Of a DNA stretch of 64,000 nucleotides, positions 14,274-19,037 are shown in pieces (the first letter of the stretch is position 1; each line of letters begins with the position of its first letter). Location of the stretch: contig JACRJV010000007.1 in the NCBI GenBank assembly GCA_016215325.1, positions 3,728 through 67,727 of the forward strand, in the 5' to 3' direction. A program made the position numbers and the translations under genes. The notes below the pieces were generated by a model. The model was not told the origin of the DNA. It saw only the letters and a program-made list of their open reading frames with translations, and did no database searches. The DNA is from Candidatus Uhrbacteria bacterium (lineage in GTDB: Bacteria; Patescibacteriota; Patescibacteriia; JACRJV01).

Positions 14274-14861
14274 CTAGAAGGGCAGCGTCAAATTTAGGCT
14301 TACTTGAGCAATTTTTGGCATTTCAGGCAAAAGAATGGCAAACTCTCGGGTCGAACCAACGTCTGGGTACCGGAGCTTTTTGAATTTTTGGGCGTATTCG
14401 TAGATATCCCGAGTGATCCGCACATCATCCAGGCAGTATTGTTTAATTTTCTCGATCTCCCCTTGCTTGTACCATTCCACCGCTTGCAGGCCATGGCTAC
14501 TCTTTGCCGTTCCTAATGTTCCCTTCGCAAGATCATCTAATTTGAGGCGGAATCCTAACCGCTCTTTCACCACTTCCAATAGGTCGAGTTGCGGGAGTTT
14601 CGATAAATCGCCTCTATAGTAATTATTTAGCACGGGAATGTCAAACGCTTTGCTGTTATACCCAATCACTCGATCGGCGTGTTCAAACATAGGCCACATC
14701 TTGGGGAGCTCTTCCTCTGTAAATGTTGAATACCGATCATATTCATATTCGTAAACCCCCACAACGGATACTTTGAGCCCCCGATGGCCTAATGCGCCGA
14801 CGTCATTGAATGTGTTTTGAGTTTCGATATCAAAGACAATCTCTTTACTCATAGGATTCAT
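14274..14861 (-). CDS. DnaQ-like (DEDD) 3'-5' exonuclease. The ORF is open to 15026, but the likely start is MNPMSKEIVFDIETQ.
   Basis: An Exo I-like FDIETQ motif and an Exo II-like IGYNSKAFDIPVL motif are present. The upstream 55 codons of the ORF look non-protein-like. Confidence 0.55.
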   Translation of the reverse strand: MNPMSKEIVFDIETQNTFNDVGALGHRGLKVSVVGVYEYEYDRYSTFTEEELPKMWPMFEHADRVIGYNSKAFDIPVLNNYYRGDLSKLPQLDLLEVVKERLGFRLKLDDLAKGTLGTAKSSHGLQAVEWYKQGEIEKIKQYCLDDVRITRDIYEYAQKFKKLRYPDVGSTREFAILLPEMPKIAQVSLNLTLPF

Positions 14862-15293
14862 CGGCACTACGAAGTAAGAATGTATACGAATATACGAATC
14901 GTCTCCCCAACGATCGATCGTCAACGCTGCGGTTCGTATAATTCGTAATGCATCGTACTTCGAAGGGGTATGCAATACGCTGCAGTATATCAAACTCTCA
15001 CACAAACAAACAGCCCCGACTGACATCGGGGCTGTTTGTGGAAAAGTGCTGGGTGAAACGGAACCGATCGCGATTATTCGCGGACAGCGACCCAGACGAC
15101 TTCACGGCGCATCATCCAAAGTTGGATGAAGTGGTGGAGCATAGCTAGAGTGTTAATGAACATTTGTTTTTGTTTTCCTGGGGCTTATGGTCGCGCCCAG
15201 GAGCGACCTTTCAAAAGCTGGATGTCCCCCCTCCGGGACATGAATTTACTCTATCAGTATAGCACATTTTTTGGGGGTTGTCGATGGGGTTCG

Positions 15294-15368
15294 TGGTGCG
15301 CGTGCCTGGGATCGAACCAGGGACCTTCTCATTATCAGTGAGACGCTCCACCACTGAGCTACACGCGC
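15294..15368 (-). tRNA. tRNA-Ile (anticodon GAT), with CCA encoded
   Basis: The sequence is GCGCGTG-TA-GCTC-AGTGGTG-GAGC-G-TCTCA-CTGATAA-TGAGA-AGGTC-CCTGG-TTCGATC-CCAGG-CACGCGC-A-CCA. The arms form a clean cloverleaf. Confidence 0.9.
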
Positions 15369-16051
15369 GCAATCGCTTCTTGATAACAATCAGTCATTGC
15401 TTTCATTGCCATCATTATTTTTCTTTTCAGTCCAGTGCTTGGGACATATACCGCACAGGTGCCGTGACCATGACTGTATGAGTAAGAAAAACTCGATGGA
15501 CGCAACGTTCTGATTTGGTGTTTATAAAACTGACTCTCATCAATTCCTGCCACATTCTCCCAAAACTTAACCTCTTTGGAAATGTCCATCGATTCATAAA
15601 GGTGGAGCTGCAAACGAATCTGCCGTCGACTGATACCATAGAACTTCCCTATCCAAGCGATAAAGAATCGGATTACACCGGGGTCGGTATTAGCAAGGTG
15701 AACTCGAAAAGGATTCCGTTTTTCGCCTTCGCCTAAATATAATACAAGCCCTGCGACAAAGCAAGACTCTGTTGAGAGGTGTTTGAATTGATCAACATAT
15801 TCCAAATACACGTTCTGGTCAGCCTGTCTCTTCTTTTCACGCATGGCATTTCTATATCGCTCTCGGCTGGCCTCACCGCTGAGCCAATTTTTCCTTCGTA
15901 ACTCTAGTATTTTTTCTTCGGTAAGCGGGAATTCTCTCAACCAGTAGCTCAGGGTACTTTTTGGTACGCTCAATTTTTTCATTATTGCAGTGTAACTCAT
16001 CTCTTCTTCTACTCGCAGTCGCACTGCTTGATTGCGAAGTTCAGCGTTCAT
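15359..16051 (-). CDS. HTH plus LAGLIDADG-type homing-endonuclease-like protein (230 aa), encoded in the 16S-tRNA-Ile spacer
   Basis: There is an N-terminal HTH (...SYTAIMKKLSVPKSTLSYWLREF...) followed by FVAGLVLYLGEGEKR, a LAGLIDADG-like motif. The stop codon overlaps the first 10 nt of tRNA-Ile. Confidence 0.5.
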   Translation of the reverse strand: MNAELRNQAVRLRVEEEMSYTAIMKKLSVPKSTLSYWLREFPLTEEKILELRRKNWLSGEASRERYRNAMREKKRQADQNVYLEYVDQFKHLSTESCFVAGLVLYLGEGEKRNPFRVHLANTDPGVIRFFIAWIGKFYGISRRQIRLQLHLYESMDISKEVKFWENVAGIDESQFYKHQIRTLRPSSFSYSYSHGHGTCAVYVPSTGLKRKIMMAMKAMTDCYQEAIARV

Positions 16052-16504
16052 AAAGATACGATGATCAATGAACCATTGTCATTATATATTAGCATAACCT
16101 TTTCTAGAGTACAACTTTTTTACCGATTTACTAAACTTCGTATGGTGAAGAGTTGTCGATACAAAAAGCCGCCCTTGTGAGGCGGCTTTCGCTTGCCCCG
16201 CAGCGATTGCTCAGGGCGAAGTTGACTCAAGAAACGTGATAGCAATGACGTCACCCGATCATTTGATCGGGTCATTCGTTGGTGGAGTACTGCCGCCCTC
16301 AATGCGCGCTGAAAGAGTACAGCAGTATTCCACCAACAAATGTCGACTTGGACTTTCGTCCAAATTACTCCCTAGAAAGGAGGTGATCCATCCACAGCTT
16401 CCGCTACGGATGCCTTGTTACGACTTCGTCCCTGTCACCAATCCTACCTTCTGACGGTTGTCCGCCATTCGGGTATTATCGGCTCCCTTGACGTGACGGG
16501 CGGT

Positions 16505-17239
16505 ATTACGATCACAACAATCTTATGATTGTTGTGTCACTGATCACCACTGGGCAAACGGCTTTCCCGTACCCTAGCGGTTCCCAAATATCGTTATTGT
16601 TTTCTTCCCGTTCCTCCGCGCCATCTCGCGCAACGCCAGAATTTTTGAATATCCGGTGTCGCTCAGATGTTCTTTCTTCGCGATGATTTCCACCACGCGT
16701 CGAAAGATGTTGAAGGATTGCTGTTTTTTCGACTGAAGAGGGTGTTGTGCCTTCTCCGTCAACAAAACCCACAACATAGTGTGGCGGTAACGGTCGGAAA
16801 TGATAATTTGGTTTCACTCCTTCCCCAGAAAAACTTCTGAGTACTATGAGATCTGCTGACTTCTTGTACTTCATAAGAATGCTTGTTTCCAAACACTCCG
16901 CCATCACCTCGTGATTAATTCATCACGATGTAGTATACCACAATTTGATGATGGAAGGTACAAGATCTCCCTGGGTCACGAACAAGAATAATTGTCTCTA
17001 TCGGGATCCTAATCACATACAGCATTTTGTGTTCGAATAATTTCCCCCTGTACGCGCGGGGTCATCCAAACTGTATGCCACCATTGATTCACGCTAAAGA
17101 CTGCGTCCGAACTCTCGTCAGAGCCCTCGCGGGCACTGGCGTGTTCTTTGCTTCAAGTCTTTCGAACGAGACTTGGTCGGATTTCCTGCCTGCCGACAGG
17201 CAGGTCACCAACATTCGTTGTCCGCTACCAGGCGGTCCG
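16505..17239 (-). mobile_element. Intron/IVS inside the 16S rRNA gene, inserted between the GUACAC and ACCGCCCGUC segments near E. coli position ~1397
   Basis: The boundaries are unambiguous by alignment to the universal 16S sequence. The intron begins GGACCGCCUGG and ends ...CGUAAU, so it shows neither the group I terminal G nor the group II GUGYG. Its class cannot be determined by eye. Confidence 0.8.
16512..16907 (-). pseudogene. Degenerate LAGLIDADG homing-endonuclease ORF inside the 16S intron, probably frameshifted
   Basis: The 131-aa ORF contains ...HYVVGFVDGEG, a LAGLIDADG motif, but then turns low-complexity. An overlapping ORF in a second frame (16574..16777) carries the endonuclease-like continuation ...SFNIFRRVVEIIAKKEHLSDTGYSKILALRE... 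Confidence 0.5.
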
Positions 17240-17550
17240 TGTACAAAACCCGAGAACGTATTCACCGCGGCGAGGCTGATCCGCGATTACTAGCGATTCC
17301 TGCTTCATGAGGGCGAGTTGCAGCCCTCAATCTGAACTGGGGGGTGATTTGATGGGATTAGCTCCAGCTTGCGCTTTGGCGGCCCATTGTAGCACCCCAT
17401 TGTAGCACGTGTGTCGCCCAGGACGTAAGAGCCATGCTGATTTGACGTCATCCCCACCTTCCTCCCCCTTGAGGGGGGCAGTCTCGCCAGACACTTGTAA
17501 CTGGCAATAGGGGTTGCGCTCGTTTCCAGACTTAACTGTACACCTTACGG

Positions 17551-17583
<33 letters not shown>

Positions 17584-17695
17584 TGCACCCTCGAAGGTCA
17601 CACGTTTCCGTGCGCTTGCAGCATCATGTCAAGCCCTGGTAAGGTTCCTCGCTTATTGTCGAATTGAACCACATGCTCCACCGCTTGTGCGGGTT

Positions 17696-17744
<49 letters not shown>

Positions 17745-19037
17745 GATACTTAAGGGGTTACCTTTGATAAACGACACTGGGAGGGTCGATACTCCCAATG
17801 TCTAGTATCCATCGTTTACGGCGTGGATTACGCGGGTATCTAATCCGCTTCACTCCCCACGCTTTCGTCTCTCAGCGTCAGATCCGTCCTAGTATGCTGC
17901 TTTCGCCTTTGGTGTTCCTGCCGATATTAACGCATTTTACTACTACACCGACAGTTCCGCATACCTCTTCCGGCCTCAATCCTGACCATCTCTCCCGCAG
18001 CGCCGAAGTTAAGCTTCAGCATTTAACAGAAGATGCATCAGGACGCCTACAGACGCTTTACGCCCAATAAATCCGGATAACGCTTGAACCACTCGTATTA
18101 CCGCGGCTGCTGGCACGAGTTTAGCAGGTCCTTATTCCCACCATACCGTCAGAAATCGGGGATCGGATATCGGAAATCGAAACGGAGGAATCCGACTTCT
18201 GATCTCTGAACCCCGACCTCTTCTTCTGGTGGAAAAGCAGTTTACACTCCGAAGAGCTTCATCCTGCACGCGGCGTCGCTCCCTCAGACTTTCGTCCATT
18301 GGGGAAGATTCTTGACTGCAGCCTCCCGTAGGAGTCGGGCCAGTATTTCAGTGCCCGTGAGGCGGGTCGTGCTCTCACACCCGCTACCCGTCGTCGCCTT
18401 GGTGGGCTTTTACCCCGCCAACTAGCTGATAGGCCATAGGCCCCTCTCCGAGCGGATTGCTCCGTTACTCCAAAACTCTTGCGAGAATGGAGACCATTGG
18501 GAATTAGCGTCTCTTTCGAAACGTTATGCCCATCTCGAAGGTAGGTTACCAATGTGTTACTCACCCGTTTGCCACTCTGCGCGCTCCGCGCTGAAATATC
18601 GATATATCGAAATATCGAAATGTCAGTGCGAAGCACGCAGCGTTCGACTTGCATGCCTTAGACACGCCGCCAGCGTTCATCCTGAACCAGGATCAAATTC
18701 TCAAGAAGATTGAATGTTGATTGCTCAACGGTTCAATATACTGTTCCTAAGAACAGATTTGGTTGCTTAGTTATTTTGTTGAATTGACGTATTGCTATCA
18801 CGTTTCTTGTTTCAACCTTACATTGTTGTCTACCCAATTTTCAATGTACGATCCCTTGAGAGAGAAAAAAATACACCCGCCCATGTGCTTCCAGCGCATC
18901 CGTAAATCCACACATAGACTGGCTGTAGAATGTTTCCGTATTGTTGGCCGTTTGGGCCATCCCCAAGGGGCAACGGGTAGTATGACGGAAACAAAAGCCG
19001 GTGTCAAGAGCAAGTCTGAGATGCAAATACATCTCCG

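Follow-up and report, generated by a model that had tools for sequence, protein, structure and literature searches.

Organization of the 16S-tRNA-Ile spacer

The window examined here is a 64-kb stretch of DNA from a Candidatus Uhrbacteria bacterium, and it contains a gene located between the 16S rRNA gene and the gene for tRNA-Ile(GAT) that encodes a protein of 230 amino acids with an N-terminal helix-turn-helix (HTH) domain, a long linker helix and a C-terminal LAGLIDADG-like domain. The host was identified from the 100% match of this protein to P0001. The features of the rRNA-tRNA region are all on the minus strand, along which the 16S rRNA gene, itself interrupted by an insertion, is followed by a 1,008-nt spacer holding the gene in question and then by tRNA-Ile(GAT) (15294..15368, minus strand; predicted by ARAGORN and matched by the Rfam tRNA model with 73.2 bits). 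The spacer has a single long open reading frame (ORF; 15359..16051, minus strand), read from 16051 to 15359 and beginning 326 nt past the mature 3' end of the 16S rRNA. It is supported by the ORF list, homologues, an AlphaFold2 model and the ratio of nonsynonymous to synonymous substitution (dN/dS).

An Rfam scan of the 64 kb found no match to LSU/23S rRNA and no 5S rRNA gene after tRNA-Ile, and no tRNA-Ala(TGC) gene was found after tRNA-Ile with ARAGORN. The initial annotation of this DNA, which was made from the sequence alone, had described an internal transcribed spacer of about 1 kb encoding a 230-residue protein with an N-terminal HTH, the lack of tRNA-Ala and 23S rRNA downstream within the window and a split rRNA operon, and these descriptions are borne out here. 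The split operon and the insertion in the 16S rRNA gene are ordinary for bacteria of the Candidate Phyla Radiation (CPR, or Patescibacteria); that unlinked rRNA genes are common, and indeed typical, in this group was already known (bioRxiv 10.1101/705046). No paralogues of the spacer gene were found near the other three tRNA genes of the window.

The ORF and the tRNA gene overlap by 10 nt (15359..15368, minus strand), as read from the sequence. The last 2 1/3 codons of the ORF cover the 5' strand of the acceptor stem, and the stop codon TAG (15361-15359) coincides with tRNA positions U8-A9-G10. The overlap noted in the initial annotation therefore stands, but the stop codon lies just past the acceptor stem rather than within it. 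With an overlap of exactly 10 nt, the tRNA itself supplies the stop codon of the ORF through U8-A9-G10.

The gene has flanking signals of its own. A promoter-like site with the sequence TTGTAC-17 nt-TAATAT (16086..16114, minus strand), recognized by eye about 35 nt upstream of the ATG and not flagged by a consensus scan, may serve as the promoter of the ORF; TTGTAC recurs at a similar position in many homologous loci. Between the 16S rRNA 3' end and the ORF is a GC-rich hairpin followed by a U run (16160..16192, minus strand; -22.2 kcal/mol, z -2.6), which resembles a terminator or a processing stem. About 250 nt after tRNA-Ile there is a further terminator-like hairpin (15005..15045, minus strand; -32.5 kcal/mol, z -6.6) whose stability was reached by 0 of 200 shuffled sequences and which may close the ORF-tRNA unit. 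Based on the promoter-like site and the flanking hairpins, the ORF and the tRNA look like a transcription unit of their own. No intron RNA model of Rfam matched the 16S-tRNA-Ile spacer, and the gene is thus free-standing, residing in neither an intron nor an intein, as had been proposed initially.

A gene family linked to tRNA genes

The identical protein in the NCBI database is labeled 'helix-turn-helix transcriptional regulator'. It has 216 homologues with 50-60% identity, all of them about 225-230 amino acids long and all from CPR bacteria, and a profile search of 1.84 billion cluster representatives returned 5,087 matches at E<=1e-3, of which 2,662 had E<=1e-10. Pairs of close homologues have dN/dS values of 0.04-0.10 with saturated synonymous sites. 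Judged by these sequence comparisons, the spacer ORF is a genuine gene under selection and not a chance ORF. No report of this family, or of endonuclease genes in bacterial tRNA leaders, was found in the literature searched, and the family is both large and, within that literature, undescribed.

The genomic setting of the family was surveyed in 79 loci with relatives of the gene, taken from species-representative genomes. A tRNA gene on the same strand lies directly downstream of the ORF in 76 of these, and no downstream tRNA gene was detected in the other three. The distance from ORF to tRNA is 27 nt or less in 71 of the 76 loci. The two overlap in 32 of the 76, and in 27 of these the overlap is exactly 10 nt, identical to that in the window, with five tRNA types represented. 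The tRNAs abutted by homologues include Ile(GAT), Ile(TAT), Gly, Lys, Arg, Gln, Val, Phe, Met and Pro, and each subfamily is bound to one tRNA type. Members of the subfamily nearest to the window protein (41-56% identity) adjoin tRNA-Ile(GAT), those of a second subfamily (35-41%) adjoin tRNA-Ile(TAT), and remoter members (about 30%) adjoin tRNAs for Gly(TCC/GCC), Lys(CTT), Arg(TCG), Gln(TTG) and Val(GAC). Four second copies of the gene, paralogues within the same loci, are likewise located 5' of tRNA genes, namely those for tRNA-Gly(GCC), tRNA-Phe(GAA) and tRNA-Met(CAT), as are five of six more distant relatives (Arg, Arg, Pro, Gly and an intron-bearing Phe).

Linkage to rRNA genes is far less regular. 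Only 17 of the 79 loci have a 16S rRNA gene upstream on the same strand, 200-3,400 nt away; in others there is no 16S rRNA gene within 6 kb, most of the tRNA sites are far from rRNA genes, and a 23S rRNA gene within 6 kb was found in 0 of the 79 loci. The initial annotation had called the location of the gene in an internal transcribed spacer unusual. That this location is the essential feature is not supported, given that the family tracks tRNA genes and not rRNA genes, and the copy in the window owes its place between 16S rRNA and tRNA-Ile solely to having tRNA-Ile(GAT) as its partner. Since homologues are nearly always found against the 5' end of a tRNA gene, the spacer gene is better described as tRNA-linked than as an oddity of an rRNA spacer, and it is probably a selfish nuclease gene. 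This corrects the impression of a gene tied to a split rRNA operon.

Domain structure and similarity to I-DmoI

The N-terminal HTH (amino acids 8-41; 15929..16030, minus strand) matches Pfam HTH_23 with 26.9 bits against a cut-off of 24.6 bits. The best matches of this domain are to the HTHs of transposases (HTH_23, HTH_28, HTH_SB, HTH_Tnp_1 and the IS3 N-terminus), and profile searches of the Protein Data Bank (PDB) weakly matched the PAI HTH of Sleeping Beauty. All subfamilies have an almost invariant recognition helix, 'PKSTLSYWL', and K31, T33, L34, W37 and L38 are invariant across 70 sequences linked to different tRNAs. In an AlphaFold2 model computed from a 43-sequence alignment (pLDDT, the predicted local distance difference test score, 89.7), the HTH is followed by a single long helix of 32 residues (amino acids 58-89 by DSSP; 15785..15880, minus strand), which links it to an alpha/beta, nuclease-like C-terminal domain. 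The predicted order of elements in the latter is helix-strand-helix-strand, an inserted helix-strand-loop segment (amino acids ~155-193) and strand-helix, which would fit the LAGLIDADG core provided that strand 1 is very short and that an insert separates strands 3 and 4.

The C-terminal domain (amino acids 94-229; 15365..15772, minus strand) was assigned by comparing the family profile with I-DmoI, the archaeal LAGLIDADG homing endonuclease encoded in a 23S rRNA intron. When the PDB was searched with the single protein or with a narrow alignment, nothing was found for this domain. A profile built from 70 members drawn from all subfamilies had I-DmoI as its best PDB match (E=0.0028), and the C-terminal domain of I-DmoI is the only part of a solved protein matched by the family profile. 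The alignment places 'aGlmLYlgEGsKkk..ialaNtdpevikffikwL' on the region of the second LAGLIDADG motif of I-DmoI ('IKGLYVAEGDKTLKRLRIWNKNKALLEIVSRWL') and spans the motif, the following strand and helix 2. A profile of the domain by itself scored 21.9 bits against I-DmoI, and 2,000 shuffles reached at most 10.6 bits. Dropping the family-specific insertion of about 40 residues raised the score to 24.7 bits and extended the alignment through LHLyedfRHG / IHLdDHRHG. I-CreI was not matched by the domain profile.

Within the motif VAGLVLYLGEGEK (amino acids 99-111; 15719..15757, minus strand), which aligns with 'KGLYVAEGDKT' of I-DmoI, the putative metal-binding residue E108 and the putative catalytic residue K111 correspond to E117 and K120. 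These two residues are essential for catalysis in I-DmoI and are lost in WhiA, which is not a nuclease (PMC3384342). Conservation was counted in 94 diverse representatives of clusters formed at 50% identity. At position 108, 91 of them have E and the other 3 have D, so that the residue is always (100%) acidic; G109 is present in 94 of 94 (100%), K111 in 87 of 94 (93%) and N121 in 99%. Based on the profile match to I-DmoI and the conservation of E108 and K111, we take the C-terminal domain to be a single LAGLIDADG-type domain that is divergent and bears an insert in the hairpin between strands 3 and 4, and with this pattern of conservation it is probably catalytically competent. The initial annotation had proposed a LAGLIDADG-like motif and had named the lack of any LAGLIDADG-family hit as a reason to abandon the idea. 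Such a lack is indeed what the Pfam models LAGLIDADG_1, LAGLIDADG_2 and LAGLIDADG_3 gave, but the remote profile match to I-DmoI outweighs it.

Searches of Pfam, NCBIfam and PHROGs left the C-terminal domain unmatched in every member tried, the only matches being to the HTH. Matches of single members to DUF6155 and to a Cap4 nuclease were below threshold and were judged to be coiled-coil noise. A Foldseek search of the BFVD viral library yielded no convincing fold match, with a 'LAGLIDADG DNA endonuclease family' protein ranking second (E=0.015).

Comparison with known systems

The family is comparable to I-DmoI in sequence, to SegB of phage T4 in lifestyle and to WhiA in the types of domain, and its architecture or context sets it apart from each of the three. 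The alignment with I-DmoI runs colinearly from the LAGLIDADG helix through the short hairpin, helix 2 and strand 3 to the 'RHG' that precedes strand 4, and the acid and lysine of the two proteins (E117 and E108, K120 and K111) coincide. I-DmoI, however, is a two-domain monomer encoded inside an rRNA intron, whereas the family protein has a single LAGLIDADG-like domain and is encoded outside introns; it also has an N-terminal HTH, the long helix and, in the hairpin of strands 3 and 4, an insertion of about 40 residues, and it is not recognized by the Pfam LAGLIDADG models. T4 SegB is a free-standing homing endonuclease encoded in a tRNA cluster that recognizes a conserved tRNA motif and spreads with the neighboring tRNA genes (PMC2330249). 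Both are thus free-standing nuclease-type genes lodged among tRNA genes, although SegB has the GIY-YIG fold, belongs to a phage, is not fused to the 5' edge of one tRNA and has proven activity, whereas the family is known here from sequence. WhiA (DUF199) is a domesticated regulator of Gram-positive bacteria with LAGLIDADG and HTH domains, and its closest structural relative is I-DmoI (PMC3384342). Like WhiA, the family protein is a chromosomally encoded bacterial protein in which domains of the LAGLIDADG and HTH types are united. In WhiA, two LAGLIDADG domains precede a C-terminal HTH and the catalytic residues are gone, whereas in the family the HTH comes first, there is one LAGLIDADG domain, the catalytic residues are kept and the Pfam WhiA model is not matched.

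CPR bacteria, the hosts of the family, also encode LAGLIDADG endonucleases in rRNA insertions (Tsurumaki et al. 2024, PMC11270868). Most of these enzymes have a single domain, and a decayed example lies 450 nt from the ORF in the 16S rRNA gene of the window. They are borne by group I- or group II-like insertions that interrupt rRNA genes, and they match Pfam LAGLIDADG_1 or LAGLIDADG_3. The tRNA-linked family differs in that it is located outside rRNA genes, has no accompanying intron RNA and no Pfam match, and is not detectably related to them by hhalign. Two phage systems provide working analogies, although their nuclease families differ from the tRNA-linked family. In the 'collaborative homing' of F-CphI and psbA, a free-standing nuclease gene lies beside a target gene that contains an ORF-less intron, and in I-TevI a long linker connects the nuclease to an anchoring HTH, and the enzyme represses its own promoter.

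Signs of gene turnover, and tRNA fragments

Several loci suggest that the gene can be lost or replaced. In L085 the 16S rRNA gene is followed by a 490-nt spacer and tRNA-Ile(GAT) with no gene between them, an empty site on a contig that also holds a family member in front of tRNA-Pro. When L070 is compared with its relative L006 (76-88% nucleotide identity), a clean deletion of 376 bp is seen to have removed exactly the nuclease-like domain, leaving the HTH part fused to the tRNA. Several further copies are truncated or frameshifted.

A scan with tRNA profiles detected half-tRNA fragments beside the ORF-tRNA units. Fragments corresponding to the 3' half of a tRNA lie right after the linked tRNA in L015, L043 and L004, and 5' halves lie upstream of the ORF in L021 (positions 1-38 of tRNA-Ile(GAT), 66 nt upstream) and perhaps L008, or between the ORF and the intact tRNA in L023 and L033. 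The fragments belong to the same isoacceptor as the linked tRNA but to a different allele, and their breakpoints are mostly at tRNA positions 34-44. They look like scars of allele replacement or of insertion near the anticodon loop, but cannot be assigned to the family protein because group I introns also occupy the anticodon-loop site.

A proposed homing endonuclease-like gene in the tRNA leader

We favor the interpretation, to which we assign a probability of about 0.5, that the ORF is a free-standing LAGLIDADG-type homing endonuclease-like gene that lives in the 5' leader of a tRNA and belongs to a family found in Patescibacteria. Being outside any intron or intein and adjoining a highly conserved tRNA gene in 76 of 79 loci, the gene has the setting expected of a free-standing homing endonuclease gene. 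The interpretation builds on the architecture of the protein, the conserved catalytic residues, the abutment to tRNA genes, the pairing of subfamilies with tRNA types, the signs of dispensability and turnover and the precedent of T4 SegB (PMC2330249). The ORF and tRNA would be transcribed together from the gene's own promoter, and cleavage by RNase P at tRNA +1 would then free a normal tRNA. Insertion into the leader would cost the host little and be nearly neutral because RNase P frees the tRNA, in a manner analogous to the way splicing hides endonuclease genes borne by introns. For the copy in the window, processing would remove the stop codon from the transcript, and expression of the protein might be limited as a result. 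The protein would act as a dimer since it has a single LAGLIDADG domain, with the invariant HTH anchoring it to a DNA sequence that tRNA genes have in common. It is envisaged to cut gene-less alleles of the cognate tRNA locus, either at the leader/tRNA junction or in the region of the anticodon arm, and repair from the gene-bearing allele would copy the gene, often along with the tightly linked tRNA, much as T4 SegB spreads its tRNA region.

A broader version of this proposal, in which tRNA 5' leaders are an unrecognized haven for homing endonuclease genes, is tentative and, taken as a whole, rather doubtful. It would comprise thousands of HTH and LAGLIDADG-like nucleases of CPR bacteria with the stop codon supplied by the tRNA, the propagation of gene and tRNA as a unit, the cutting of rival alleles of the same tRNA near the anticodon arm, and the origin from such cutting of the half-tRNA scars and the nested tRNA-in-tRNA structures of related loci.

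If the favored interpretation is correct, the pre-tRNA leader would be a new genomic niche for homing endonucleases, and the protein would represent a new architecture in which an HTH anchor and a ruler helix precede a single I-DmoI-like domain whose DNA-binding hairpin bears an insertion. It would help to explain the broken, intron-bearing and nested tRNA genes in CPR genomes that also have intron-laden rRNA genes, and it would give a name to about 2,600 protein clusters that are now called 'HTH transcriptional regulator' or 'hypothetical'. The family would also be a pool of compact, naturally diversified meganuclease-like proteins with tRNA-gene targets that are conserved across life.

A number of results weigh against this interpretation. 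The window protein matched none of the Pfam LAGLIDADG_1/2/3 or WhiA models at E<=1, 43 members of the family matched no Pfam LAGLIDADG model at E<=10, and nine distant and ten long relatives gave no such match either. The 50 best Foldseek matches to the PDB did not include a LAGLIDADG enzyme and were all weak (TM<=0.41), the best matches of the full model being to OmpA-like and IspF folds. Comparison by hhalign with a true, spacer-encoded LAGLIDADG_3 family of CPR bacteria, using single sequences and a 33-sequence alignment, was negative. The evidence for homology consists of one remote match with an E value of about 1e-3 and is modest. The nearest neighbors of family members mostly follow taxonomy, and synonymous sites are saturated in comparisons where the proteins remain 80-90% identical. 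Long vertical inheritance would account for both observations no less well than active homing. The correlation between 16S rRNA and protein divergence is saturated and does not separate vertical from horizontal descent. No pair of close relatives differing in the presence of the gene at one orthologous site was found, and a strain-level look-up by way of the neighboring exonuclease gene returned a single contig, on which the ORF is present. There is no target-site duplication or repeated tRNA end around the gene, and no duplicate of the tRNA 5' end (an att-like repeat) was found upstream of the ORF above the control level. No relatives were found in viral contigs. A target inside the tRNA would leave unexplained how the linked tRNA escapes cleavage. 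Finally, the distant relative in L087 (1501-2253; P0441, 26% identity) has no adjoining tRNA and is located between the genes for triose-phosphate isomerase and phosphoglycerate kinase, so that within the superfamily the tRNA rule has exceptions.

Alternative explanations

The main alternative, which is possible if somewhat unlikely, is that the protein is a domesticated DNA-binding regulator that resembles WhiA or the autorepressor I-TevI, with the HTH controlling its own leader-tRNA unit or tRNA genes in general. The protein would then be derived from a LAGLIDADG enzyme but vertically inherited and no longer a mobile nuclease. WhiA sets a precedent for a regulator with HTH and LAGLIDADG domains (PMC3384342), and the very low dN/dS with saturated synonymous divergence, the agreement of nearest neighbors with taxonomy, the retention of one tRNA type by subfamilies across several CPR classes and the invariance of the recognition helix between subfamilies all accord with such a role. 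Many homologues also have operator-like palindromes, for example TTGAACCTATG...CATAGGTTCAA, that span the -10 region and abut the ATG. These inverted repeats 5' of the ORF start (L068, 5925-5982; L085, 1445-1500; also in L048, L033, L041 and L057) enclose a -10-like box and end 0-8 nt before the ATG, and their half-site resembles the tRNA T-arm sequence GGTTCRA. They could be operators or, alternatively, RNA hairpins that hide the ribosome-binding site. Perfect inverted repeats upstream of the start codon are restricted to a subset of homologues, however, and the window copy has no such palindrome. WhiA lacks the catalytic acid and lysine, whereas the family keeps them in 100% and 93% of representatives, and there is no obvious rationale for a dedicated regulator per tRNA gene for more than nine tRNA types. 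Some lineages have broken or deleted the gene and yet kept the tRNA, and the gene is missing at tRNA-Ile(GAT) of L085. If the protein should nevertheless prove to be a domesticated regulator with its catalytic residues kept, it would be a second, independent domestication of the WhiA kind and of interest in itself.

The remaining alternatives are less probable. LAGLIDADG maturases are an established class of proteins, and the protein might act on RNA in a similar way, binding its own pre-tRNA and aiding removal of the leader, folding of the tRNA or splicing of the group I introns of neighboring tRNA genes. The ORF is part of the pre-tRNA leader with its stop codon inside the tRNA, and several members abut tRNAs with group I or group I-like introns in the anticodon loop, such as those in L037 (83 bits) and L084; dual-function LAGLIDADG enzymes have been discussed as well (PMC3384342). 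Most of the linked tRNAs, including that of the window, have no intron, however, the residues conserved are those for DNA cleavage, and an HTH of the transposase/homeodomain type points to binding of double-stranded DNA, all of which makes a role in RNA processing improbable. It is more improbable still that the gene is a site-specific, transposon-like element in which an HTH of the Tc1/IS630 or IS3 kind has been joined to a new nuclease and inserts upstream of tRNA genes. The constant position relative to tRNA +1 and the transposase HTHs as best matches of the N-terminal domain would suit such an element, but no terminal inverted repeats, target duplications or repeated tRNA ends surround the gene, there is no DDE or other transposase catalytic domain, and the C-terminal domain matches I-DmoI instead. 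The initial annotation had suggested that the ORF might be the footprint of an intron from a lost rRNA segment, and this idea, whether as an intron or insertion remnant or as a maturase specific to the internal transcribed spacer, is hardly tenable and the least probable of all, being already contradicted by homologues at many tRNA types far from rRNA genes. It could draw on the group II-like insertion with a broken LAGLIDADG ORF in the same 16S rRNA gene, on the wealth of LAGLIDADG-bearing insertions in CPR rRNA genes (PMC11270868) and on the true LAGLIDADG_3 gene in the spacer of L003. The family is not detectably related to the LAGLIDADG_1 and LAGLIDADG_3 proteins of rRNA insertions, though, no 23S rRNA gene lies within 6 kb in the 79 loci, and the spacer has no match to an intron RNA model.

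Interrupted tRNA genes and other nuclease-type genes near tRNA genes

Inserts of 225-350 nt in the anticodon loop occur in CPR tRNA genes for Phe-GAA, Ile-GAT and others (L037, 9961-10272; L084, 2213-2523; L085, 1027-1442; L045, 6421-6714; L068, 5597-5923). The insert in L037 is a group I intron (Rfam Intron_gpI, 83 bits), the only one detected among those scanned, and the others look similar; two of these tRNA genes directly follow family ORFs. The tRNA-Ile(GAT) gene downstream of the family ORF in L066 (3700-4015) is split at an unusual site, with about 240 nt in the T loop between GGTT and TTCGAGTCC. In L023 (2538-2826) and L041 (6437-6737) the anticodon loop is split by about 220-240 nt. 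Within this insert, on a stem of 13-15 bp, sits a second, complete tRNA whose type is identical or similar to that of the split one (Ile-GAT in L023, Val-TAC in L041). The outer tRNA halves of L041 pair perfectly, the outer 3' half of L023 is decayed, and the family ORF of L023 ends in the outer 5' half of the split tRNA. We know of no description of such a tRNA-in-tRNA arrangement.

Other nuclease-type genes occupy comparable positions. In L003 (3019-3663) a true LAGLIDADG_3 gene (50 bits with Pfam), whose own family has 890 CPR homologues of about 210 amino acids, lies between the 16S rRNA 3' end and the family ORF, and the 16S-tRNA spacer of a CPR bacterium can therefore hold two different endonuclease-type genes. 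In L063 (10126-10635) a 169-residue ORF contains an HNH nuclease motif (HHIDGNNKNHSLKNLMWLCHNCHFLIHH) and shares 15 nt with the 5' end of tRNA-His(GTG), and a second, unrelated nuclease type is thus found in the same 'tRNA leader' position. In L021 (3393-5999) the 16S rRNA gene and the ORF-tRNA unit converge, an arrangement suggestive of an inversion.

The 16S rRNA gene and neighboring features of the window

The 5' exon of the 16S rRNA gene (17239..18708, minus strand) was located with the Rfam model SSU_rRNA_bacteria (1278.7 bits, with an Rfam span of 17225-18708) and blastn. Relative to the bacterial Rfam model, the gene has an extra 46 nt near helix 6 and an extra 62 nt near position 450 (17225-18708, minus strand). 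The 3' exon (16377..16504, minus strand) corresponds to E. coli positions 1398-1541 by blastn against E. coli rrsH, and its terminal sequence is GGATCACCTCCTT. Between the exons, at E. coli 1397/1398, is a group II intron-like insertion of about 734 nt (16505..17238, minus strand) that matches Rfam group-II-D1D4-1 with 57.5 bits at 16817-16900 and carries a frame-broken LAGLIDADG ORF (16512-16907) with the motif YVVGFVDGEG. It is the same kind of insertion as the '16IS9' insertion of CPR bacteria (PMC11270868), and intact LAGLIDADG_1 versions of 16IS9-type insertions occur in L003, L013, L015, L024, L030 and L066. The part of the spacer just 3' of the 16S rRNA (16200..16345, minus strand) is strongly structured, with two long hairpins (-59.9 kcal/mol, z -5.5). 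The next gene past the terminator that follows the tRNA (14274-15026, minus strand) encodes a 3'-5' exonuclease-like protein (RNase_H_2 / DNA_pol_A_exo1), and its listed start probably over-extends into the terminator hairpin.

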